A stretch of 64,000 nt of DNA from Obrimoposthia wandeli (GCA_977020255.1 CDROCS010004943.1:310001-374000), one strand, 5' to 3'; shown: positions 3,215-51,859, numbered from the stretch's first letter. The notes: generated from the sequence alone by a model not told the origin. Numbers and translations are program-made.

Positions 3215-5283
3215 AATACACACCTTACCACACGTATCATTGATTCAAATTACACAATTATAAAATATACCAAATAATTATAGGACAAATATTTTTATCC
3301 GTTATTGATATTTTCATGAAGGTTTTGCGCAAATTTATACGGAAAAATCCCCTTATCATGAACCGAAACTAAGAACACTGACTGTGTAATTGGCCATGCA
3401 TTTAAAGATGCCGTTAAATTTTTTAAAGAACCGCTCAAAAACTGCAGAGAATCTATAAATCTTAAACTGTAGAATTCAGTATATGCTGTTAAAGATAAAT
3501 ATTTCTCTGAAGTTTGAGGTACACATGAAATTTCTCAAGAGCTTAATGTACCCAACGCGTATTTAAGTATATGATGCAAATCATATTCTTTGAGATTATG
3601 AAACACGATGGGAATGCGTGGTTTTTAGGGAGTAGACGGCCAAGGTTACAGTGGTTGCATGCCGCTCCCAATTATCGCCCCGTAACATGATCGTGATCTC
3701 TGACTAACTTAGACTGGGTTTCACACAAATAACATAATCTACAAGAATTAAAATTAACCCAGTCTATGCCTGTCATGATCATTGCTTGATGAGCATTAAG
3801 ATCAATCCACGGTTTGTCAATTGTAGTTCCTAATTCTTCTAATTTTAACATTAAAACTAAAATACAATTTGGACCGGAAAATTTATGATACTGTGATAAA
3901 TATATTGGGGCATAAGATTAGTAGTCCTGCCGAAGCCGGTAAATGAATTCTCTCATACTGGTCGTGCAATGCTAGAATTGACTCAAAATCAGCATACACC
4001 CTGAATTCCACGGGTATGCATTTTGTCCAATCCCTGAATTTTAAATCCTTATCCTTAGGTATGCTGTATAGCGTATTGTCATCGGGATTCAGTGAACATA
4101 ATGTCAGATGTTTGTTGTAAGAGAGCTCGGATCGGAATCCATGTAAACATCTATGACACCACTTAGACCTTATCCTAACCGGTAAGGCTCCATTATCTAA
4201 ATTTAGAAGACGATGTAAACTGGGAATTGCAGCATAATATAATTTTTTCTTATGTTCGAGCAAAATTAAGTTTTTGCTCCTATAAATTACATCTACAAAA
4301 GGATTTTGAAAAATTTCTTCATCTGTTACATTAACTGGGATATCAGTATTGTATTTAAATACATTAATACTCAAGTTATTAAGATGTTCAAATCTTGATA
4401 TCGCAGTTAATTTAACATGAAAATCTATTCCATGATACTGCAATTCATTTATAAAATTAATTTATATTAAAAAAAAATATTAATTTATATATATTTACTA
4501 ACACGCTCTCTATGCTCAGTAATTACATCCCTTTTGAGGATGGCCATCACGCAATACAGAAAGCAAAGGTTATCACTGTTTTGTACGTTAACAATGGAAC
4601 GTGAAAGTTGAAGAGATCTAGGTGAAGGAATGTATGAACTCCCCGAAAGATATATCATGTCAGTGGACTTTTTTAAGAACAAAGCTAACATCGTGAATTC
4701 TAACTGGAGTCCATCCACTACTTAACTCGTTATAATTAGCAATTTTTTCATTTAGGTTTCTTCCAATTTCAGTTACAAAATTATCATAGAAAACAGTTGC
4801 TTTATGTGAAATTACCCAAGTTTTAGTCTCCTCATTGACATTTTAAAACTGCACTGTTGCGCAAAATTGAACCTTAGCCTGTCCTAATTTAGTCACTTCT
4901 GATTTTAAAAGATTTTCAATATTTGAATCTACACCTACGTTTAATAAAATTTCATTTCCTAATGACACCTTAACTATAACATATTTATTATTTAGGTGAT
5001 ACTCTATAGTAGCACTGTTTTCTCTACGTTTTTTGGGTGGGACCTTATTAAGAAATTGGCCTCGCCTCTTTCTTCCTACAGTCGCTGACAAACCTCTCCC
5101 TAATTGAAAGGGAAGACAATTAGTTATATTAATCGCAGCTGATGTAGACGATGCTGCTGTAATAGATGCTGCTGCAGATGATGAGACAGTGGCAGTTGTA
5201 GAGGCTGCATTTGAAGTTGGAGTATGCAAGGTAGAAGCTGACCTTGCCAATGAAGAAGATGGCTGTTGTAGAGGCTGATGCTG

Positions 5284-5331
5284 CTGAAATAAATATATTA
5301 AAAAAAATATATAATTTAAAAAAAAATTTAC
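5284..5331 (-). other. pPolB intron 3 (48 nt, phase 1)
   Basis: AGAG|gtaaattt...atttcag|CAGC. The intron is almost pure AT between ~50% GC exons. Confidence 0.8.
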
Positions 5332-5418
5332 CTCTAAGGCGTGCTAACATCGATGTAGGCACTCGCGATGGGGGAGGCATAGCTGTCGTAGCGGATGACG
5401 TCTGTATCAAGTTACTTC

Positions 5419-5497
5419 CTGAATAAAATATATAAAATAAAATATAAATAATTACAATTTTAAAAAAATTATCAGAAAAATAATTATAAAAAAGTAC
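5419..5497 (-). other. pPolB intron 2 (79 nt, phase 1)
   Basis: TTAG|gtactttt...tattcag|GAAG. The 87-nt exon 5418-5332 keeps frame (GSNLIQTSS...RLR). Confidence 0.8.
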
Positions 5498-5860
5498 CTA
5501 ATGAAGGCAATCCAACTGGAGCTGGAATGAAGTCCTCTTCATTGACGGTATCCATCTAGCTGTCTTCCGTTAACTCGACGAAATCGGATTCCTCGGTAGA
5601 GCAGGTGCAGTCTGGGAATCGCGCACCAATTGCACGATATCCCTCTTCTTGTTGTTGGCCGTGAAACAGAATAGGTGAGCTCGATGTTCACCGAAGAAGA
5701 CTCGAAACTCCTTCTCCTCCATTGTTCTGCAGAAGAGGCAGACGAAGAATTGAAACCCGCGAGACTTTGTCAGATAGAAGGCAGACATTATCTCCATACA
5801 GGTCTCTCCTCCATGCGGAGCTGAAGCACCACAATATGCTGGAAACAGGATACACGTAAT

Positions 5861-5907
5861 CTGAAATAATAAATATTAATAAAGAAATAATAAGTATAGA
5901 TTCTGAC
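5861..5907 (-). other. pPolB intron 1 (47 nt, phase 0) directly after the start ATG
   Basis: ATG|gtcagaat...tttcag|ATTACG. The homolog at 30644-30689 has the consensus donor ATG|gtaaga. Splicing extends ORF 5570-5797 by exactly 21 open codons. Confidence 0.82.
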
Positions 5908-5957
5908 CATAGTCAATATTTCAAATATTCGGGGATTTAAATGAAGAAAGTGTTTGC

Positions 5958-5999
5958 TTATATACTAAAATTTATGCACACATGCTCTTTTCCTATTGG
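5958..5999 (-). promoter_or_regulatory. Putative pPolB promoter (TATA and CCAAT)
   Basis: TATATAA on the minus strand at 5958-5964, 48 nt before the ATG, and CCAAT at 5995-5999. Both are conserved in copy 2 (TATA at 30740-30746). Confidence 0.55.
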
Positions 6000-6149
6000 A
6001 TTAAAACATTGAATTTTATTGAGAAGGATTGTTTATCTGTTATTGGTCGAAAACATTTTTTTTTATTCCTCCAATTAAAAGGCTTATTTGTAATTGAATG
6101 AAAAATTGAATTTTTAAATAATGAATTTCTTCAATTAGAAGAATTGTTT

Positions 6150-6636
6150 ATCTACATGTTAAATAATAATAAGATAGACTTAAACAATTTTTATATGCGC
6201 AATGGTCACCATGACTACGACATAGACAGCAAATATTTCGTGGAATTTTTAATAGGTGATCACGTGAAATATTTAAAGTATTCAACCTCAATTTGTGAAA
6301 ATATTTTTTAAAGTCTTATACTTTTTTGCCATCCATTTCATCTAAAACATAAAAAATTCCATTTTCTATATCAAAATTAGATTTTATTGTATCGAAAATA
6401 CATATTTCACAAAAAGCCTTATGTCCTTCTTTCCATTTTAATAAATGAAAATAATTAGTTAGATATAAATTAGTAAATTTTTTCTTATAATCTAAACTTT
6501 TAAACGGGATATCTATTTGAAATATGAAATGCAAAGTATGAAAAACGTTGCATACATCCATAATACATAATTCTTTTTTAATATAATCACCATTTTTGTT
6601 AATGAAAACCTCAAAATCTATGATATATTCCTGCAT
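6150..6636 (-). pseudogene. Polinton accessory DnaQ/DEDD-like exonuclease-fold protein with Cys/His tail, frameshifted
   Basis: IDFEVF..YIKKELCI..HFIF..YLTNYFHLLKWKEG, then after a frameshift CCLCRSHGDHCAYKNCL. This pattern is familiar from Maverick accessory ORFs. Confidence 0.6.
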
Positions 6637-6700
6637 AATTACTCAAATTTGTAGCAAATCCCATTGTTTATAACGAAAATAACCATTAATCAAAAATTTA

Positions 6701-6940
6701 TTAAAATAACAAAGTACTCAGTCTTTCATGTTCAGATTGGTATAAATTGTCAATTCTCCTATGAATATTAAAATAAATTATATTAAATGTAAACATACCT
6801 AAATATTTCGAAATTAAATTACGTATTTTATCTTCAACAATTTCCGGAGTATCATTTTCTGAAAAGTAATTTTTTTTATAATATTCCATTAAATCTGGAG
6901 ATAATTTAATGTATAATTTATTCCAATTTTTATTTTCCAT
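6701..6940 (-). CDS. Polinton small hypothetical protein (79 aa)
   Basis: Open ORF within the gene array. A disrupted homolog lies at about 31510-31750. Confidence 0.5.
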   Translation of the reverse strand: MENKNWNKLYIKLSPDLMEYYKKNYFSENDTPEIVEDKIRNLISKYLGMFTFNIIYFNIHRRIDNLYQSEHERLSTLLF

Positions 6941-7059: not shown

Positions 7060-8130
7060 AAAAAAAATTTTTTGTAGGAGGACCCTCTTAACCGCCGCTT
7101 GTTTCCTATCGACGGATAGTCTGAGAGTTGCCTCCTCTTAAATTTCCTCTACCAATTCGGCTTCTTATGTGAATAATTAAAATTATTAACTAATTATTAA
7201 CTAATTTATAATAATTTACCTCATATTTATCCGGAGTCGGTAGGTATCGCTGCTCACTCCTTGGATCATCCTGGTTACATTGACTCGCCAAGTACTGCGG
7301 TTCAATCAGCCTCTCCGCCGTGGTCACTGACGGTGCCAAATCCAGTTGAAGTTTCTAAAAATGAAATTAAAAAACATTTTAAATAAATTAACCTCATTCG
7401 TCGCCTTTATTCTCCTAACAGGACATATCGGAGATTGCGGCCTTATGAACGGACCAGGCACCTTTATTGTCGGCTATCGGAGTTGGTGTTGCAGAGGGAG
7501 TGAGACCATCCAAATCATCGGTGAACAGGCGCCACTCGTCTTCGTCCAATTCTGCACCATCGAATCGTTGGCTCCTGGGGCTCCGATACTTGGCTGTATC
7601 CATTCATCGATGAATGGAGTCAAGTCCTCCTCACCCTCCAACGGAACGTAATTGGTGAATAGCTCCTCGTCTGAGTCTGGTGCAAGTTCTATCTCCGGCT
7701 GAGACAGCAGGATCAATTTCCAGGGGCGTTTGATTGTCGCCTCAAAATTCTGAAAGAGATTGAATCTCCTTGCTGCTACTGCTGAAGTTGCCGGACGATT
7801 GGGTTTTGTGTTTTGCCTGGGAGTACAGTCTTCCCAATTCTCAATCGAATGCTGACTAGTCAGGTCAATATATTGGGATCTCTGTACCCCGCCTCTCACG
7901 TCCATTGGTTCTTCTTTTGGAGTTGAGCTGGCCAATGGGGCTTCTTCTTCCAACAGCTCCGCTCTTGCTGCTGCTTCTCCTTCGTCTCCTTCGCTCACCA
8001 CCGACGAGTCTTGACTAAGTAAGTCAATGTATTGCGCCGGTGGTGGCGTTCGCTGCTGTACTGGAGAGAGATCCCCATTTAGTTGAACCTCCATCTCTTC
8101 GTCTAGGTCAACGTTGTTGAAAATAGGCAT
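7060..8130 (-). pseudogene. Polinton terminal-proximal spliced acidic disordered protein ('gene X')
   Basis: GC-rich exons at 8130-7393, 7354-7220 (135 nt) and from 7164. Introns are 7355-7392 and 7165-7219 (acceptor mutated here, intact in the 40464-40507 copy). Two frameshifts. Two QYIDL(L/T)SQ motifs. Confidence 0.75.
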
Positions 8131-8185
8131 TCTTGATTATTGATTCTTGATTTTGATTAATGAAAAATAATGAAAAGAGGTCTTA

Positions 8186-8212
8186 TTATATACAAATGAA
8201 ATGCCGTCCAAT
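8186..8212 (-). promoter_or_regulatory. Putative gene X promoter (TATA and CCAAT box)
   Basis: TATATAA on the minus strand at 8186-8192, 56 nt before the ATG, and a CCAAT/ATTGG at 8208-8212. Confidence 0.5.
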
Positions 8213-8504
8213 AAAAGCAGGTTATTCAAATAATTTATTTGAAAAGTCCATAGGCTTTTATCAATTTTTAACTACTTTTGAATGCGAGAATGTCATTGGA
8301 TAAAAAAAATATTTTATTTAAAAATAGTATTATTTTCTTAAGTTTTTGTTGCTTAAGTTCAACGTCCAATGAAAACGTATTATTCAAATAATTTATAGAA
8401 TTTTATTAATTTTTGTTGATGTTTGAATACATGTATATCTTTGGATTTAAAATAGTAATATTTTCTCGATCGTACATGTTTGAATGGTATAAATGTTTTT
8501 CCAG

Positions 8505-8635
8505 AGGTCATTAAAGGTCAAGTTAAGGTCATGACCTCATGAGGTCAAGGTCATTTAAAGTCATCATGAGGTCAAGGTCATTTAAGGTCATGATGACTCA
8601 TTCTATAACTCATCGATGGTTCATCGTATGACTCA
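8505..8635. repeat. AGGTCA half-site array plus two TGACTCA sites in the Polinton subterminal region
   Basis: Nine perfect AGGTCA/TGACCT hexamers in 8505-8590. TGACTCA at 8594-8600 and 8629-8635. Confidence 0.75.
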
Positions 8636-8719
8636 TCCTACGACTCAACGATAACTCATCCGAATAAAATGAAATAAAATGTTGAAATCATTTCCAATTT
8701 ATGTAGTTAATGATTTAAA

Positions 8720-9000
8720 TTTTTTGCGACCCTATATATGTATTGCTCGTTAAACTACCGCAGGCCCGGAGGGCACGTGTTGGCCCACTAGACGGCTTCT
8801 CAGGACCTTCCTCACTTTTTTGGGAGCATTATGAGATTTTCAATTTTAAAGGGTGTTATATGGGGTTAATTAGTTATTGTGAGTGTTGGCCCAACACTGT
8901 TGGGGTGGGGTAAAATATTTCACTCCACACACATGCTCAGTTTTAAAGGACAGTGGAAGGAGGGGGTGTGAATTAGACCAGACACATCCACATACTTACT
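8720..9000. mobile_element. Polinton subfamily-2 right end (subterminal region and TIR)
   Basis: Ends ...gacacatccacatacttact at 9000 (reverse complement AGTAAGTATGTGGATGTGTC) and matches 40860-41121. The element extends inward to about 3220. Confidence 0.85.
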
Positions 9001-9305
9001 ATATTTAGTTAAAGTAAAATTTATCTGCAATATGCGTAAAGTTCGCCTTCCACTACTCAATTCACTGTAATTGACAATTTTTTCATCCAATTTTTGCGAT
9101 ATCTTGTTCAAACACTCATCATCATACAACACGGTTATTGTTATTGATAGTTTTTTGATATAATTGAATGTCTGATACACCTGATGTGGTAGGATTTGAT
9201 AGTTTCGTGATAGCCAGTGAGGATGGACTTTGTATCCTTGCTGATGTGGAAGGACTTTGGTGTGTCATGGCATACGATATAAATGGTATTTGGTGTGTTA
9301 CCTGT
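9001..9305 (-). pseudogene. Fragment of a second, divergent Polinton pPolB N-terminal region
   Basis: TVLYDDECLNKISQKLDEKIVNYSELSSG..QINFTLTKY aligns with TVFYDNFVTEIGRNLNEKIANYNELSSGW in the 4700-4800 region. It is preceded by S/T/P-rich sequence and cut at TKY by the subfamily-2 TIR. Confidence 0.65.
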
Positions 9306-9309
9306 ATAA

Positions 9310-9618
9310 AGATATAGAATTATGGGCTGCAAAAATCCTATATTATTCTCAACTACTTCATTGAAGATTCGTATCGAGAAAATTCAATCTGTAACGATAT
9401 CTTCAAGTCTTGGAAAATCAATAAATTTACACAAACTTTCACGTAAAGTATCATGTATATATGAGCCAGAATTATTTCCAACTTTACAGTTAAACAAGTT
9501 CAACCCTATGTGTGTAAATATATTTTCTACCGGAAAAGTTGAAATTTTAGGTATCAAATCTTTAAACTATAAACATCAAGTCAAATCAATAATGAATCAT
9601 ATTGAATATTGTATATGA
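9310..9618 (+). CDS. TATA-binding-protein-like protein, second repeat (5' truncated)
   Basis: RIMGCK...KIQSVT..INLHKL..IYEPELFPTL..VNIFSTGKVEILGIK matches TBP repeat 2 (KIQN..YEPELFPGL..IFVSGKVVLTGAK). Confidence 0.85.
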   Translation, partial: RYRIMGCKNPILFSTTSLKIRIEKIQSVTISSSLGKSINLHKLSRKVSCIYEPELFPTLQLNKFNPMCVNIFSTGKVEILGIKSLNYKHQVKSIMNHIEYCI

Positions 9619-9704
9619 TTGTATATGATTGGTTAAAACTGTACATATAAACTTCATGCAGAGTAACTCACCTAAATCTTTATACATGGAATACAAAATG
9701 TCAT

Positions 9705-10052
9705 TTGAATTTGAATTACAAAATGAATACATTGAAGAACAGTTGGATATTTACATTTTCATTACCAGTATCCATTAGTTTAGCCAAATTCAATCATAAA
9801 CTGAATGATATTACAATGTCAGATATGGAAAACTTGAATAAAACACTGGAGCGAATGAATATCAAATATGCTTTGGAAAAACCGTTTATGTTTTTAAGAT
9901 GCGAGGATTTCTTTGACCGATTTGGAAAGAAAATAAACTTTGAATATGATTGTGAATGGTTGATTGATATATCAATACAAGGATTCAAAGAGAATAAAGA
10001 ATGTCAAATCACTCCAATTTGGAAGGTGAAGTCTGCTCATCAGTGTTTTTAA
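9705..10052 (+). CDS. Polinton hypothetical protein (115 aa)
   Basis: Open ORF co-oriented between the TBP-like and ATPase genes. No family recognised with confidence. Confidence 0.55.
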   Translation: MNLNYKMNTLKNSWIFTFSLPVSISLAKFNHKLNDITMSDMENLNKTLERMNIKYALEKPFMFLRCEDFFDRFGKKINFEYDCEWLIDISIQGFKENKECQITPIWKVKSAHQCF

Positions 10053-10177
10053 TACATGTTATAACTAGCCTTTATTATTCTTGAATAATATACATAATAA
10101 TGTATTTTAAACTTTTAATAAATATACTTATCAGAAAAATTGTTGAAGTAGTAACATAAACAATGTGTTTTTTCTAG

Positions 10178-10802
10178 AAATGTTTTATTATGATTTTAAA
10201 AAAATAATGTAGTTTATCAGGTAGTAGGGCCTTCTGGTAGGGGAAAGACGTCTTTTGTTTGAAAATTATTGAAAAGTAATTTATTTAAATATTCCTTTAA
10301 AAGGATTTATTGTCATCAAGGTGGTGCCTTTTGTGATTTAAAAAATGTTGATGTAATTGATGGTTTTGATTAAAATTGGTCAAATAGATTGAAAAAGGGA
10401 GATGTAATTGTAGTAGATGATTTATATCAAGAAGCCAATAAAGAAGCCGATTTTAATAATCTGTTTACTAAAATTGCTCGTCATAGGGAAGTTACTGTAC
10501 TCTTTATAACACAAATCCTGTTTCATCAATGAGGAGCTCACAGAACACGTAATATTAATGTACAATATTTGATATTATTTAAAAATCCTCGGGATCAAAC
10601 TGTTGTGGATTTTATTGCTAAACAGACTTATTCACATAATAAACGCTTTCTTATTGATTCGTTTCATGATGCAACAAAGAAGGCACATGGGTATTTATTC
10701 ATTGAATTTACACAAGATTGTCTTAATGATTTTAGAATTTCTACTGACTTATTTAATCCTCACGGTTATATTGTATATAAACAAAAAATAATTAACAGCT
10801 AA
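10178..10802 (+). pseudogene. Polinton packaging ATPase (A32/FtsK-HerA family)
   Basis: Walker A GPSGRGKT at 10227-10250, Walker B VIVVDD, then LFTKIARHREVTVLFITQ..YLILFKNPRD..DAT..HGYLFI. Internal stops. Confidence 0.92.
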
Positions 10803-10829
10803 ATCAAAATGTATTTTAAAAAGGTTTTG

Positions 10830-11170
10830 ATACCACATGAGAGATGATAAGTTAAAAAACTAATTTCCAACGTTTTATTTCAAAGAAAATCCAATCCATA
10901 TATTAATATACTATTAAAGACACTTAATTCTCGTAGAATGAGAATTTTAAAGTATTTTTCGACATTTGTAATAGATGATATTATTAAAGTATTCATTAAA
11001 ATAATAAGCGGTACAGTAAAAGTCGGTAAATAGGCTAATGCATTAAAGCAGTATAAACAACCACTTTTAAGAACCAAGAATAATTTAGGTAAACGTAAAA
11101 TATTTCTTTAACAATCAGGTGGTATTCTTCCGGTTTTAGCACCAATACTAGCATCACTAGCACTGTGCGT
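10830..11170 (+). pseudogene. Polinton small basic core/pVI-like protein with xGG motif
   Basis: IIKVFIKIISGTVKV..LKQYKQPL..KRKIFL*QSGGILPVLAPILASLA matches the conserved Maverick QxGGFLP.LL.PIL ORF. Confidence 0.65.
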
Positions 11171-31819: not shown

Positions 31820-32960
31820 TTATGTAACACAAAAATAATCAATAAAGACAAAAGAAAAAATAATTTTCAAAAATAATTTTTTAGAAGATGGACCCTCTAC
31901 AGGTTTAATATGGAAGATTCTCTTTCTTGAAGCTCGGCGATTGTCCTCCATCTCCACTCTTCGTTTTTCAGCCATTTGCCTTTGCTCCAATTCAATCTTC
32001 TTATTCCACTCCACGATCCAACGTCGTTCTGCTAGCCGCCTATCTTGAGATTTTAGCAGTAGTTTCCACAATTTTTTGAGAGGAAGTGCAGGCAATGTTG
32101 ATGGCCCCAACGATTAAGTTGTAGCCTTCCTCTTCCGCGGAGCTTTCTTCCATTTCTCCTACTTCTCACGCTGAAGCTGACGTGAGGCGGTATCCTGCTG
32201 CCCTCACGAATCTGGAAGTATTGATGGTTGAGGAGTATCCAGATCCGCTAGGAATTCGTCCAATCCAGCATCATCTCAGGCCCTTTTCAAGTTCTGGCTG
32301 GTAGATGCTGTTGGCAGAGGAGAAGTAGTCTCTCAAGCCCTGGTCAAATTTTGGCTTATACTCAATGAACCTGGTGCCGTCTTCTACAGGTGTCGTTGAC
32401 TCGGTGGCGGTTTCCTCTCGTACAGAATTGACCCGTCGTCCACTGGATATGGGAGAATTTCCTGCTGGCCAATCACAGCCTCAGAAGAATTGAGCTTCGT
32501 GGTGCGGCATTTTCTCGAGCGCTTCGTTTTCCGCACCTCTGCTTGCTTCGTATGTTTCTTGGGAAAAGGAGCAATTTTCCCCATGTCTCCTCAATTATCT
32601 GCAACAAAAACATTAATAAAACTTTTAATTAAACTTTTAATTAAAAAAGTATATTTAAATATTAAAAAATTTACCTCAATAATCGGATTTTGAAGTTTTT
32701 CCTGCAAATTCATTTACACCTAGGTAGATTTGAGCAGAAAAGATTTTACCTTTTTAGGACGCCTCGTCTTCCGCACAGCAGCCCACTTCATTCGTGTCTG
32801 TGGGAAAGGATAAAATTTTCCCCACGTCTCCTCAGTTAATTCTATTGGTTCCTGCAACAAAAACATCAATAACATTTAAACATATAAATAATTTTCTCAA
32901 TGACAGGCAGGTTAGCCTGTTTCCCGAACTTGGCTTTCTTCCGATGGACCGTATGGGTTT
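31820..32960 (-). pseudogene. Divergent homolog of spliced gene X (subfamily 1)
   Basis: Same position relative to neighbours and TIR. GC-rich exon-like blocks are separated by gtaaat...ttgcag and gtaaaa...cctag AT stretches. Repeated EETWGK exon starts. The 3' end overlaps the AT-rich tail seen at 7060. Confidence 0.5.
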
Positions 32961-33290
32961 TGACCTGAAGGCATCGCGGTTTTATGGACGACCATTATCC
33001 CATACTTTAAAAACTTCAAGTCAAAACTCTGCCTGACACATTCATCTATGGACGGCCACAACCCTTGGATATGTTGGTCAACCTTAAGAAGGATGGAGAC
33101 TAGATCACTTGACCCCCCCTTCCCTCAATCATAACCTTTATGAGCCAAACCCTTATGGTGTGGCAAGACACCCTTATGGTGAGGCAACATATACCCTTAT
33201 GGTGTGAATCTCTTATGGTGAGGCAACATATACCCTTATGGTGTGAATCTCTTATGGTGTGACACCCTTATTTAACATTGTGTGCTCACA
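32960..33290. mobile_element. Polinton subfamily-1 right TIR, outermost ~40 bp missing
   Basis: ttatggacg repeats, gaaggatggagactagatcacttgaccc and a cccttatggtg array, colinear with about 55160-55460. Confidence 0.85.
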
Positions 33291-39921: not shown

Positions 39922-41121
39922 AGTAGGTGGATGTGTCCGGTCTAATCCACACCCCCTCCCCCCACTGTCCTTTAAAATCGTGCATGTGTGTGGAGTGAAA
40001 ATTCGTGCATGTGTTTTGAGTAAAATTTCGTGTATGTGTGTGAAGTGAAATTTTCTAACCCCCCGGGGGGTACCACTGTTCTTTAGAACCATGCATGTGT
40101 GTGGAGTGAAAATTCGTGCATGTGTGTGGAGTGAAATTTTGTGTGTGTAGGGGAAAAATTGAAAAAGCATTGAATAAGAGCTTCCTCCACCCATATTTTT
40201 TATTTTACTTTGAAATTTATCTCAAAAGTGGTTAGAGAAGACCACGGGAATCCATATTGACCCCGGCGGCTTATCGCAGACAAGATTTCAAATATATTAC
40301 TACATGTTAAATATTTAGGTCAGAGAGAAAAATTAGATCACTATATAATTTAGAGGAGAAAAAACAAAATATGGCGTCGAGGTTTCTTAACCGTCGCTTG
40401 TTTCCTATCGACGAGTAGTCTGAGAGTTGCCTCCTCCCAAATTTCCTCTACCAATTCGGCTTCCTATGTGAATAATTAAAATTATTAACTTATTTATAAT
40501 AATTTACCTCAAATTGATCCGGAGTCGGTAGGTATCTCTGCTCACTCCTGGGATCATCCTGGCTACATTGACTCGCCAAGTACTGCGGTTCAATCAGCCT
40601 CTCCGCCGTGGTCACTGACGGTGCCAAATCCAGTTGAAGTTTCTAAAAATGAAATTAAAAAACATTTTAAATAAATTAATAGACTAACCTCATTCGTCGC
40701 CTTTATTCTCCTAACAGGACGTATCGGAGATTGCGGTCTTTTGAACGGATCAGGCACCGTATTGTCGGCTATTGGAGTTGGTGTTGCAGAGGGAGTGAGA
40801 CCATCCCAATCATCGGCGACCAGTATATATATGTATGGATATAAATTCTTATAAGGAAAATTTTTTCGCGACCCTGTATATGTATTGCTCGTTAAACCAC
40901 CGCGGGCCCGGAGGGCACGTTTTGGCTCACTAGACGGCCTCTCAGGACCTTCCTCACTTTTTTGGGAGCACTTTGAGATTTTCAATTTTAAAGGGTGTTA
41001 TATGGGGTTAATTAGTTTTTTTCAGTGTTGGGATAAAGAAAATTTCACTCCACACACATGCTCAGTTTTAAAGGAGAGTGGGGGGAGGGGGTGTGGATTA
41101 GACCGGACACATCTACCTACT
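39922..41121. mobile_element. Complete 1.2-kb non-autonomous Polinton (subfamily 2) with TIRs and 6-bp TSD
   Basis: TIRs of about 85 bp (AGTAGGTGGATGTGTCCGGTCTAATCC and its reverse complement). TSD ATTTAT at 39916-39921 and 41122-41127. Confidence 0.93.
40370..40818 (-). pseudogene. 3' half of gene X with both introns intact
   Basis: Introns 40643-40688 and 40464-40507, both phase 0, around a 135-nt exon. Spliced product reads ...RIKATNE|KLQLDL...TPDQFE|EAELVEEIWEEATLR. Confidence 0.8.
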
Positions 41122-50254: not shown

Positions 50255-51660
50255 TCCATAAGCGCGGTTTCTATTTTTCTCGATCCAATAGCGTTTGTCG
50301 TCTGATGAGATGAGAGCAGTCTTTTGTATAATGATTGTGTATAGCTGGTGATTTATTGTTCCAAACTTCTTTCGTGGTATAGTATATGCATTACCGTTTT
50401 CATACACGTATAAATATGTTTGGTGTACAACCGTTGATCCCTTAAAATTTACTCATTTTGCTTTATTATTTTCAAAGTCATCTTCAAACTTAAGTGAATA
50501 ACATTTACAAAGTAAGAAAATCCATTCTTTATACATTCTTCCTTTCGATTCTTCTTTAAATAATCCTATTTTACTATTAAAATCATTAGAATATAACGGA
50601 TCATTCACATTATAATTTGACGTATCTAATGCTCCATCTGCAATCATTTGTTGCAACAACTGATTTCTTAAATTAACACATTTGCATTCTAAAAAGAACG
50701 AATCAGTATCTCCGACAACTATATTAATTGAACAATTAAAAATTATCTATAATTTTGTAAATCATGATACTGAAGAGTATACATTCATAATTTGTTAAGG
50801 TCTAGTACGGCTTGGCCTATATAATTTGGTCGATCGAGACAAATAAAGTATTTTCTTAATAAAGCAGCTATTAAATTATCATGAATTTCAATTGATCGTT
50901 GAAACATAAGTTTGCTAGTATATGTGATTAATTTTGTAGAACTAGTGCAGATGCGAAGATTCAACCGTTTCTTAACATTTTCAACGGTATTTCCATACAA
51001 ACTAACATTTTTAAGTTTATAAAAATCTTTGTCACATTTATTCGTTGCTTGTGATCTCATTTCTGAATTATATTCTATATATTCTGCGAATATCTTAGCC
51101 TGAGAGAATTTTACTGCTCGATGAATAATTGTTACCACTGCTCCTAAACTAACGTACATCTGCAATAGTCTCCAATGATTAACGTAATGACCTTTTGGTG
51201 AATGTGTCATTAAAAGTTTTTCAAAAATTTACCAGGAGGACATTTCTTTTCTGGAGCTATAGGTAGTTCGCCTAAAATGTCATAAAGGTTTTCCGGTATT
51301 ATCAAGTCTACCCCCATAACATGACCATATTCAATATGTTCCATGTTCATATTTTTCATTTCATGCAATATTTCGTTTAATTTATATCATCAAGAATCTA
51401 TGCAAAATCTCATTTGGGTAAAAGTTGATCAAGAGCCCATCCATATAAACTATTAACATCTATGTATAAAAGACTCGTTTCTTCATCAGCAACTACATGA
51501 TGCTTATTGACAAATGTCATTCCTTCACGTATACCTGAAGAAATCATGTACATTTCAGGATCTTGCATCAGTTTAACCTTATGTATTAACATTAGCACTT
51601 GCCCAGCTCAACCCAGGAATGCTTAAGGGTTAAGTGATTCTAAACCATCTTTGCTGAGAG
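50255..51660 (-). pseudogene. Polinton pPolB polymerase domain (C-terminal half)
   Basis: GIREGM..LLYIDVNSLYGWAL (motif A), FYKLKNVSLYGNTVEN (motif B), YIGQAVLDL, VGDTDSFF (motif C), IGLFKEE, SDDKR. Confidence 0.93.
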
Positions 51661-51859
51661 TTTTTCTTCTGAATGTTTTATTTAAAATTTACTGAAAGCT
51701 TCGTCCATAAATTATAATATCAAATCTTTAATTATATGGTTTTATATGTAAATAAATCAAATTATGTACATATTCGATTATCAACTTAATACTTCTATTT
51801 ATTATTTGACTTTCTAAAATAACTAAAATGTCTTGTAAGAACACATAAAATTAATTATC

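Follow-up and report, generated by a model that had tools for sequence, protein, structure and literature searches.

A selected and probably spliced terminal gene of Maverick elements in Obrimoposthia wandeli carries two SUMO-interaction-like motifs

Introduction

Maverick/Polinton (adintovirus) elements are described as having terminal inverted repeats (TIRs), a 6-bp target-site duplication, and pPolB, integrase, ATPase, capsid and protease-like genes, with variable open reading frames flanking these core modules, and the intact vertebrate members are reported to be intronless (PMC8097293). In nematode Mavericks, intron-bearing, high-GC cargo adjoins the left terminus beside the terminal repeat and consists of the wasp proteases and krma kinases, folded host-like enzymes in a poorly conserved cargo slot (10.1101/2022.07.12.499685). 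Dinoflagellate Maverick elements carry introners (PMC11957031), and a Maverick expansion has been reported in a planarian genus (10.64898/2025.12.11.693146).

At the genome end of other elements and viruses, upstream of the polymerase, the adintovirus Oncoid and adenovirus E1A genes encode motif-based, probably host-facing proteins (PMC8502044, PMC5513362), of which E1A is described as touching the SUMO pathway by binding Ubc9 and not by binding SUMO through tandem SUMO-interaction motifs (SIMs) (PMC5513362). HSV-1 ICP0 and VZV ORF61 are viral proteins with several SIM-like sequences, and in a SIM acidic or Ser/Thr residues flank a hydrophobic core (PMC8430037). VIDLT represents the type-b class of SIM, in which Asp at position 3 has been called critical (PMC4161520), and avidity for di-SUMO arises when type-b SIMs are arranged in tandem (PMC3901395). 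The cellular proteins RNF4, PIAS1, CAF-1 p150 and FLASH/CASP8AP2 have, in tandem and in disordered sequence, (V/Y)IDL(T/L/I) cores with Ser/Thr and acidic residues after them. In Drosophila, piRNA targeting is coupled to the silencing of chromatin through SUMO scaffolds (PMC8490990).

The gene described here lies in a 64,000-nucleotide stretch (the window, from whose first letter positions are counted) of the AT-rich, 1.35-Gb genome of Obrimoposthia wandeli (GCA_977020255.1 CDROCS010004943.1:310001-374000; G000:C4943:310001-374000). Its element has the Maverick terminal repeats, target-site duplication, polymerase, integrase and ATPase, with weaker capsid and protease-like matches, and the gene is one of the variable reading frames flanking the core modules; in contrast to the intact vertebrate elements, it has three or four predicted introns, and it encodes no known domain. 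Like the nematode cargo it is GC-rich, intron-bearing by prediction and located beside the terminal repeat, whereas its product is a predicted disordered orphan, it has been under selection in four subfamilies, and its introns appear to have been multiplied by exon duplication. Its place upstream of the polymerase at the element end resembles that of Oncoid and E1A, and a first-pass annotation had proposed an E1A/ICP0-like identity. That identity does not hold: in exons 1–4 of copy L012 and exon 5 of copy L027, the LxCxE, CR1, CxxC and PxDLS motifs that define Oncoid and E1A in PMC8502044 are absent; no sequence similarity to them was found, and the five exons scanned contain only 5 Cys, no RING finger and no Pfam family. 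Because a RING finger is lacking and cysteines are so few, the protein cannot be an ICP0-type SUMO-targeted ubiquitin ligase. From the cellular multi-SIM proteins it differs in a motif spacing of 37–53 residues, in a Thr that is not fixed, in being encoded by a mobile element and in that its SIMs are predicted ones. It is a real orphan accessory gene of Mavericks, under selection across subfamilies and very likely spliced, in a setting where intron-bearing cargo is already known from nematodes.

Results and Discussion

The decayed element and the window copy

By its sequence the region ending at position 8996 belongs to the terminus of a decayed Maverick/Polinton. The terminal region with its inverted repeat (8717..8996, minus strand, element end at 8996) matches at 85% the right end (40858-41121) of a mini-element at 39922-41121, which retains both ends with an AG-type end motif at the termini and a 6-bp target-site duplication, so that the terminal repeat expected of a Maverick is found at the focal end. 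Within the flank fetched, a TIR-like match lies 5' of the gene in 22/30 subfamily-A loci. Profiles PF03175 (pPolB), PF00665 (rve integrase) and PF04665 (packaging ATPase) score above their cut-offs in the linked loci L033 and L034, and decayed pieces match PF21738 (double-jelly-roll capsid, E 0.006) and PF00770 (adenain-like protease, E 0.032), both below the curated cut-off. The terminal gene is, as first annotated, the first reading frame inside the terminus at 8996 and reads inward, toward the polymerase; downstream of it (3300..6717, minus strand) lie a reading frame that we provisionally label exonuclease-like and a decayed protein-primed DNA polymerase, matching at 85–88% (tblastn) the reading frames of L033 and L035, whose polymerase pieces match PF03175.

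The minus-strand reading frame opens at an ATG at 8130 and contains the two motifs first noted in it, YIDLL (8017..8031) and YIDLT (7858..7872), each followed by SQ, and residues 1–185 hold five S/T-P sites, where several had been noted. Exon 1 (7393..8130, minus strand, 738 nt) encodes acidic, Pro/Ser-rich sequence, and in this copy its last quarter has two frameshifts (near 7555 and 7460) and a stop at 7474-7476. On the same strand follow the predicted phase-0 GT-AG intron 1 (7355..7392, 38 nt in this copy, GC 0.11), predicted exon 2 (7220..7354), which is the reported 135-nt exon between two AT-rich phase-0 gaps and is identical to 40508-40642 at 130/135 positions, and predicted phase-0 intron 2 (7165..7219, GC 0.09), whose acceptor is lost here. 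The 5' part of predicted exon 3 (7086..7164, minus strand) holds a stop and is cut by a deletion of ∼1.25–1.36 kb at 7086-7089; 28 non-duplicate A loci diverge from the window at 7086-7088, and three of them rejoin it at 7089 further on. Given the frameshifts, stops, lost acceptor and ∼1.3-kb deletion, the window copy is a pseudogene. The span 7060..8130 originally assigned to the gene is too short: the gene does not stop at 7060, and other copies add up to two introns and a basic C-terminal half. Because of that half, the description as an acidic, Pro/Ser-rich protein stands for exons 1–2 but not for exons 3–5, which are basic.

Two further copies lie in the window on the minus strand. The second (40371..40823) comprises the end of exon 1, intron 1, exon 2, intron 2 and the start of exon 3, and sits within the internally deleted mini-Maverick 39922-41121, which retains only the middle of the gene; locus L005 is a similar short derivative, complete from end to end. 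The third, more diverged copy (32021..32982; tblastn with natural exon reading frames, 55–76% identity) comprises the end of exon 3 and exons 4 and 5. Separately, the focal region 7060-10900 is duplicated ∼26.5 kb upstream (G000:C4943:290509-294363) at 97–99% identity, and because this match runs across the element's end it represents a segmental duplication or an assembly haplotype.

The whole gene and its predicted introns

Reconstruction from other copies recovered a gene of four or five exons and ∼640 codons. A DNA search yielded 30 subfamily-A loci, fetched from 40 scored of 7510 candidates and 92–100% identical, and two further searches yielded 30 and 25 loci, each from 40 scored. A tree of the first 60 loci separates subfamilies A, B and C; subfamily D is ∼40–60% identical to A in exon 1. 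The modal exon lengths in A are 738, 135, 165, 177 and 705 nt, all multiples of three, and the modal intron lengths are 46, 44, 46 and 76 nt, none a multiple of three. Exon 1 measures 738 nt in 24/30 A copies, and exon 2 measures 135 nt in 28/30 A, 13/18 B, 5/6 C and 8/13 D copies, while intron 2 drifts in length (mode of 44 nt in A, 39 nt in 12/14 D copies). In scorable A copies the GT donors 1–4 are kept in 28/30, 28/30, 25/26 and 24/25, and the AG acceptors 1–4 in 29/30, 25/30, 27/28 and 21/23; GC is 0.09–0.20 in the introns of A copies versus 0.48–0.53 in the exons. Old D copies keep the splice dinucleotides less well, e.g., GT in 11/19 at donor 1 and 9/19 at donor 2, as would be expected of longer decay, and are weaker as evidence of splicing.

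These features indicate that the terminal gene is very likely spliced through three or four short, AT-rich, phase-0 GT-AG introns. The first-pass claim of a spliced gene is borne out as far as the gaps, the conserved splice sites and the selection in the spliced frame described below are concerned, splicing itself being deduced from these. Four read sets cover the introns and no predicted-intron joint occurs among the 15 joints listed of 227; these reads look like DNA and are silent on splicing. In place of the intronless condition reported for intact vertebrate Mavericks there are four conserved GT-AG gaps of predicted introns.

Paralogy links exons 3 and 4 with the beginning of exon 5 (53% identity with E 3e-20, and 35% with E 9e-6), and most subfamily-B copies have one intron-exon unit fewer than those of A and C. 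Because of these two findings, we infer that some introns arose by duplication of intron-exon units inside the gene. A Maverick gene whose introns have been kept and multiplied by exon duplication during element replication would run against the picture of intronless elements drawn from vertebrates, and annotation based on open reading frames would miss it.

Selection across subfamilies

Net dN/dS was obtained from pairwise codon differences, between groups minus within groups and uncorrected, after the near-duplicates L002, L040, L048, L049, L055 and L130 had been dropped; the sample then comprised 29 A, 20 B, 6 C and 24 D copies (28 A for exons 4–5). Because the within-subfamily ratio, ∼0.55–0.75 in A and B, includes neutral decay, it and not 1 is the fair baseline. 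Exon 1 has a net dN/dS of 0.21 for A-B (CI 0.14–0.30), 0.23 for A-C and 0.34 for A-D; exon 3, of 0.20 for A-B (CI 0.09–0.38) and 0.34 for A-D; exon 4, of 0.29 for A-C (CI 0.13–0.61); and exon 5, of 0.36 for A-B (CI 0.22–0.57) and 0.42 for A-D. The values for exon 2 are 0.49 for A-B (0.23–1.50), 0.69 for A-D (0.39–1.27) and 0.44 for B-D (0.23–0.92), not separable from the baseline. Shifted frames give 0.68–5.6, the high values being partly mechanical, from third-position changes. Judged from these codon comparisons, exons 1, 3, 4 and 5 have been under purifying selection in the phase-0 spliced frame between subfamilies, of which four were compared.

Two YIDL motifs maintained as peptide

Both motifs lie in exon 1 on the minus strand, motif 1 as YIDLL followed by SQDS and motif 2 as YIDLT followed by SQ. 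Their recurrence is not expected from composition: in 3000 shuffles of residues 1–185, two core motifs and a 10-mer repeat with 8 identities each occurred in 0/3000 and a strict type-b string in 1/3000, and there are no YIDL-type cores in the 2573 aa of 13 other Maverick reading frames. Motif 1 has identical majority residues in A, B and D, with Asp in only 2/5 C copies, and ranks 1/237 among 10-residue windows for A–D conservation, a rank that is not motif-specific because the whole surrounding block of ∼40 residues is conserved. Motif 2 ranks 106/237 and keeps Tyr-Ile-Asp-Leu and Ser-Gln-acid-Ser, whereas its Thr, present in 29/29 A, 19/20 B and 5/6 C copies, is Ile in 22/24 copies of the most distant subfamily, D.

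The two motifs were also compared with each other within genes, at the 23/85 loci where both match the strict 10-residue pattern. They differ by 117 synonymous versus 28 non-synonymous codon differences, a split that recurs in 14 A copies (66 versus 15), 5 B/C copies (29 versus 5) and 4 D copies (22 versus 8), and the ten residues on either side of the motifs share ∼0–1.5 positions. Because the two copies differ mostly synonymously and their flanks are unrelated, the motif has been kept as a peptide and not as DNA.

We take the strict type-b SIM string to be [VILFY]-[VI]-D-L-T, and the YIDLT of human FLASH/CASP8AP2 to be a SIM. Motif 2 of A, B and C fits this string; motif 1, and motif 2 in 22/24 D copies, do not. 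Both motifs fit the general description of a SIM, since SQ(D/E)S follows each hydrophobic core in a region predicted to be disordered, and in A, B and D most copies have Asp at position 3. The proposal of tandem type-b SIMs therefore survives in part: both cores have been maintained as peptide and have the general form of a SIM, but the strict string is confined to motif 2 and loses its Thr to Ile in D. Likewise, where conservation of IDLT across subfamilies was at issue, Tyr-Ile-Asp-Leu is kept, but in D the final Thr mostly is not. The twin YIDL-x-SQ-(D/E)-S motifs are thus predicted SUMO-binding sequences, and a role in SUMO recognition is plausible. The host encodes SUMO, and its SUMO exon is 77–79% identical to proteins of three database entries, of which two carry flatworm names. 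A complex prediction for residues 22–108 with a flatworm SUMO as stand-in returned a score of 0.00, which is no answer and bears neither way. At L145 (G000:C2050:143400-145100) and similar places, diverged ubiquitin-like domains, each in a short frame of its own, form arrays that repeat every ∼270 nt.

The sequence YIDL also fits, by our reckoning, LIR and tyrosine-based motif patterns, and LSQ an ATM/ATR site. The protein could accordingly be the same kind of nuclear transactivator or hub with motifs of another class, i.e., an ATM/ATR-type SQ, an LC3/Atg8-binding YxxL or a tyrosine-based SH2/adaptor site, an alternative that we consider unlikely. In all four subfamilies Tyr, Ser and Gln are conserved to the same degree as the hydrophobic core whereas Thr is not, a LIR-type pattern matches both motifs, and a third SQ (LSQPE) occurs later in exon 1, all of which favor such a class. 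However, the LIR pattern is unspecific, matching four other places in exon 1; the acidic and Ser residues follow the core and do not precede it, as described for SIMs in PMC8430037; and YIDLT followed by Thr-Glu-Ser is present in human FLASH/CASP8AP2 (PMC4495600).

Host cargo or element gene

The gene might instead be a captured host gene carried as cargo, like nematode wasp and krma, in which case it would either serve the host or have a function of no consequence for the element. This is improbable, although high-GC, intron-bearing, TIR-adjacent cargo has a precedent in nematode Mavericks (10.1101/2022.07.12.499685) and the intron style matches that of the host SUMO gene, in which a 40-nt phase-0 intron has the donor GTAAAT, the same hexamer as introns 2–4 of the terminal gene. 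Against it, the terminal gene occupies one and the same terminus in four subfamilies and has been under selection throughout, and the paralogy of exons 3, 4 and the start of 5 indicates that some introns arose inside the gene. Similar mini-introns also occur ahead of the polymerase, as AT-rich GT-AG gaps of 43–48 nt between GC-rich, Ser/Thr/Ala-rich exons in 4/5 stretches scanned (window 4800-5950, minus strand; L033:2500-5300; L035:1700-3300). An upstream reading frame near these polymerase mini-introns carries acidic Trp repeats.

Cargo capture is further opposed by the finding of no cellular homologue, although these searches could miss a host gene that evolves fast and encodes a disordered protein. 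A phmmer search with exon 1 against 1.84 billion representatives gave 1 match, a repetitive protein of 2553 aa with 11 matched stretches, which was rejected as spurious as it bears no resemblance at the match. Exon 5 matched 0/405 candidates among proteins of 129–412 aa, and a 10-sequence exon-1 alignment matched 0/7989 scored among proteins of 432–2000 aa. The ESM Atlas returned one match at 0.79 and none usable, Pfam 0 families on the five exons, a PDB profile search 0 matches, and a capsid-protein scan of viral contigs no relative; for a disordered, spliced gene such blanks carry little weight. Among titles and abstract openings, largely from openly available journals, no description of a SIM-bearing Maverick gene was found; the supplementary cargo lists that accompany 10.1101/2022.07.12.499685 and PMC8502044 could affect how novel the terminal gene is.

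The acidic and basic halves

Net charge is −25 and −4 for exons 1–2 and +6, +8 and +19 for exons 3–5. A disorder scan of exon 1 of copy L012 (D+E 0.19) gives FoldIndex <0 in 179/206 windows, and exon 5 in 165/195; the AlphaFold2 model of exon 1 has a mean pLDDT of 45.9 from a shallow 10-sequence alignment and is uninformative. Exons 3–5 have a K+R content of 0.20–0.25, NLS-like strings and tandem repeats of varying number. In exon 1, acidic aromatic F-x-x-x-W patches, which we regard by analogy as activation-domain-like, lie at 7500..7630 (minus strand), the second out of frame in the window copy; two each are present in L012 and L053 and three in the D copy L111, and both are among the ten most conserved non-overlapping 10-residue windows of A–D. 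If the AT-hook pattern is, as we assume, a conserved Gly-Arg-Pro core between basic residues, a loose form of it occurs in exon 5 in 21/28 A and 6/20 B loci, most C and D loci ending short of this region. Because four copies (L068 in B, L061 in C, L114 and L126 in D) have another residue in place of the Gly of the GRP core, the string is better called a basic patch than an AT-hook.

A Gly-Gly pair just before motif 2 (7885-7895, minus strand) presumably resembles an adenain-type cut site. This pair, kept in 6/9 aligned covering copies, the basic composition and variable repeats of exons 3–5, and a protease-like reading frame in the family (the PF00770 match at E 0.032, below cut-off) would be compatible with a structural DNA-packaging core protein, whose basic repeats condense the genome and whose acidic half is a chaperone-like propeptide cut by the element's cysteine protease. 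Such a role is, however, about as improbable as cargo capture: the gene is separated from the capsid module, being terminal and preceding the polymerase, the Gly-Gly pair is deleted in L053, selection on the acidic half equals that on the basic half in strength, and the genome contains a second Maverick family in which capsid genes are present but the terminal gene has no match.

This second family (window 50450-51679, minus strand; L077-L106) has another gene order, with the polymerase pointing outward at one end, and ∼40–60% protein identity to family 1. No terminal-gene match was found inside its termini in the 16 + 14 stretches examined, and because these 30 stretches are without a match, the gene is dispensable for some Mavericks of this genome. 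Clear matches at L082, L092 and L095 were rejected as family-2 homologues, since they lie outside the family-2 termini and belong to nested family-1 copies, and weak matches at L102, L105 and L106 (E 0.003–0.87) were dropped. One family-2 copy is inserted into an old subfamily-D copy of the terminal gene.

Finally, the introns might not be real, with exon 1 alone translated and ending a few codons into the AT-rich stretch while the rest is non-coding or a set of separate reading frames, as the modal read-through of 32 codons past donor 1 in A copies (13/23) and the near-baseline dN/dS of exon 2 might suggest, but this is highly improbable, given that read-through length varies among subfamilies (4–51 codons in 11 B and 2–66 in 8 D copies) and so leaves no conserved product, that exons 3, 4 and 5 are selected in the exact frame given by phase-0 splicing, and that all eight splice dinucleotides are kept in A copies.

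A possible function and associated elements

The reading that we tentatively prefer, which falls somewhat short of even likelihood, is that the intact gene encodes a spliced, disordered nuclear regulator whose two predicted SUMO-binding motifs and acidic patches activate the element or shield it from silencing. Host RNA polymerase II would transcribe the gene from a TATA-like box (8186..8192, minus strand, 62 nt 5' of the ATG), which is found at −55 to −62 in 27/29 A copies and at −44 to −51 in 10/15 scored B/C copies, and the host spliceosome would remove three or four introns of 39–76 nt. The K/R-rich half, with its NLS-like strings, a KP(G/D)RPKK patch and two or three exon-encoded basic repeats, would direct the protein into the nucleus, where it would contact DNA or chromatin. 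There the two YIDL-x-SQ-(D/E)-S motifs, 37–53 residues apart, may bind with avidity to the SUMO of chromatin proteins, and phosphorylation of the Ser following the core may tune this binding, and the acidic F-x-x-x-W patches may recruit co-activators. Because there is no RING or catalytic domain, the role would be that of an adaptor or competitor and not of a ligase. The protein would then be a candidate for how integrated Mavericks switch on and evade host silencing, and its motifs could be assayed as peptides.

A more specific version of this regulator, which we regard as unlikely, is a Maverick-encoded multi-exon anti-silencing activator, whose tandem SIMs would sit on a host SUMO scaffold and whose basic half would sit on element DNA, while its acidic patches would reactivate the copy together with the element's TBP-domain protein. 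If true, the protein would resemble ICP0/E1A in function while lacking their domains, and would offer a first way into how integrated Mavericks leave latency. The TBP-domain reading frame (window 9310-9618, plus strand; L036:2411-2767, minus strand) matches PF00352 above cut-off (E 9e-12 and 1e-11), lies near the opposite end of the elements of this family and adjoins the ATPase; a DNA search for it scored 40 copies of 2826 candidates. A title-level literature search found nothing specific on a Maverick-encoded TBP-like protein, which may merit separate study.

Farther upstream, 380–460 nt 5' of the ATG, the window copy has a cluster of TGACCT/AGGTCA hexamers (8510..8590, minus strand), which we take to be nuclear-receptor half-site-like. 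At least one hexamer is present in 26/29 scored A copies and in 2/15 scored B/C copies. Being nearly confined to subfamily A, the cluster was rejected as a conserved control element, and it may be a host-factor site gained by this youngest subfamily.
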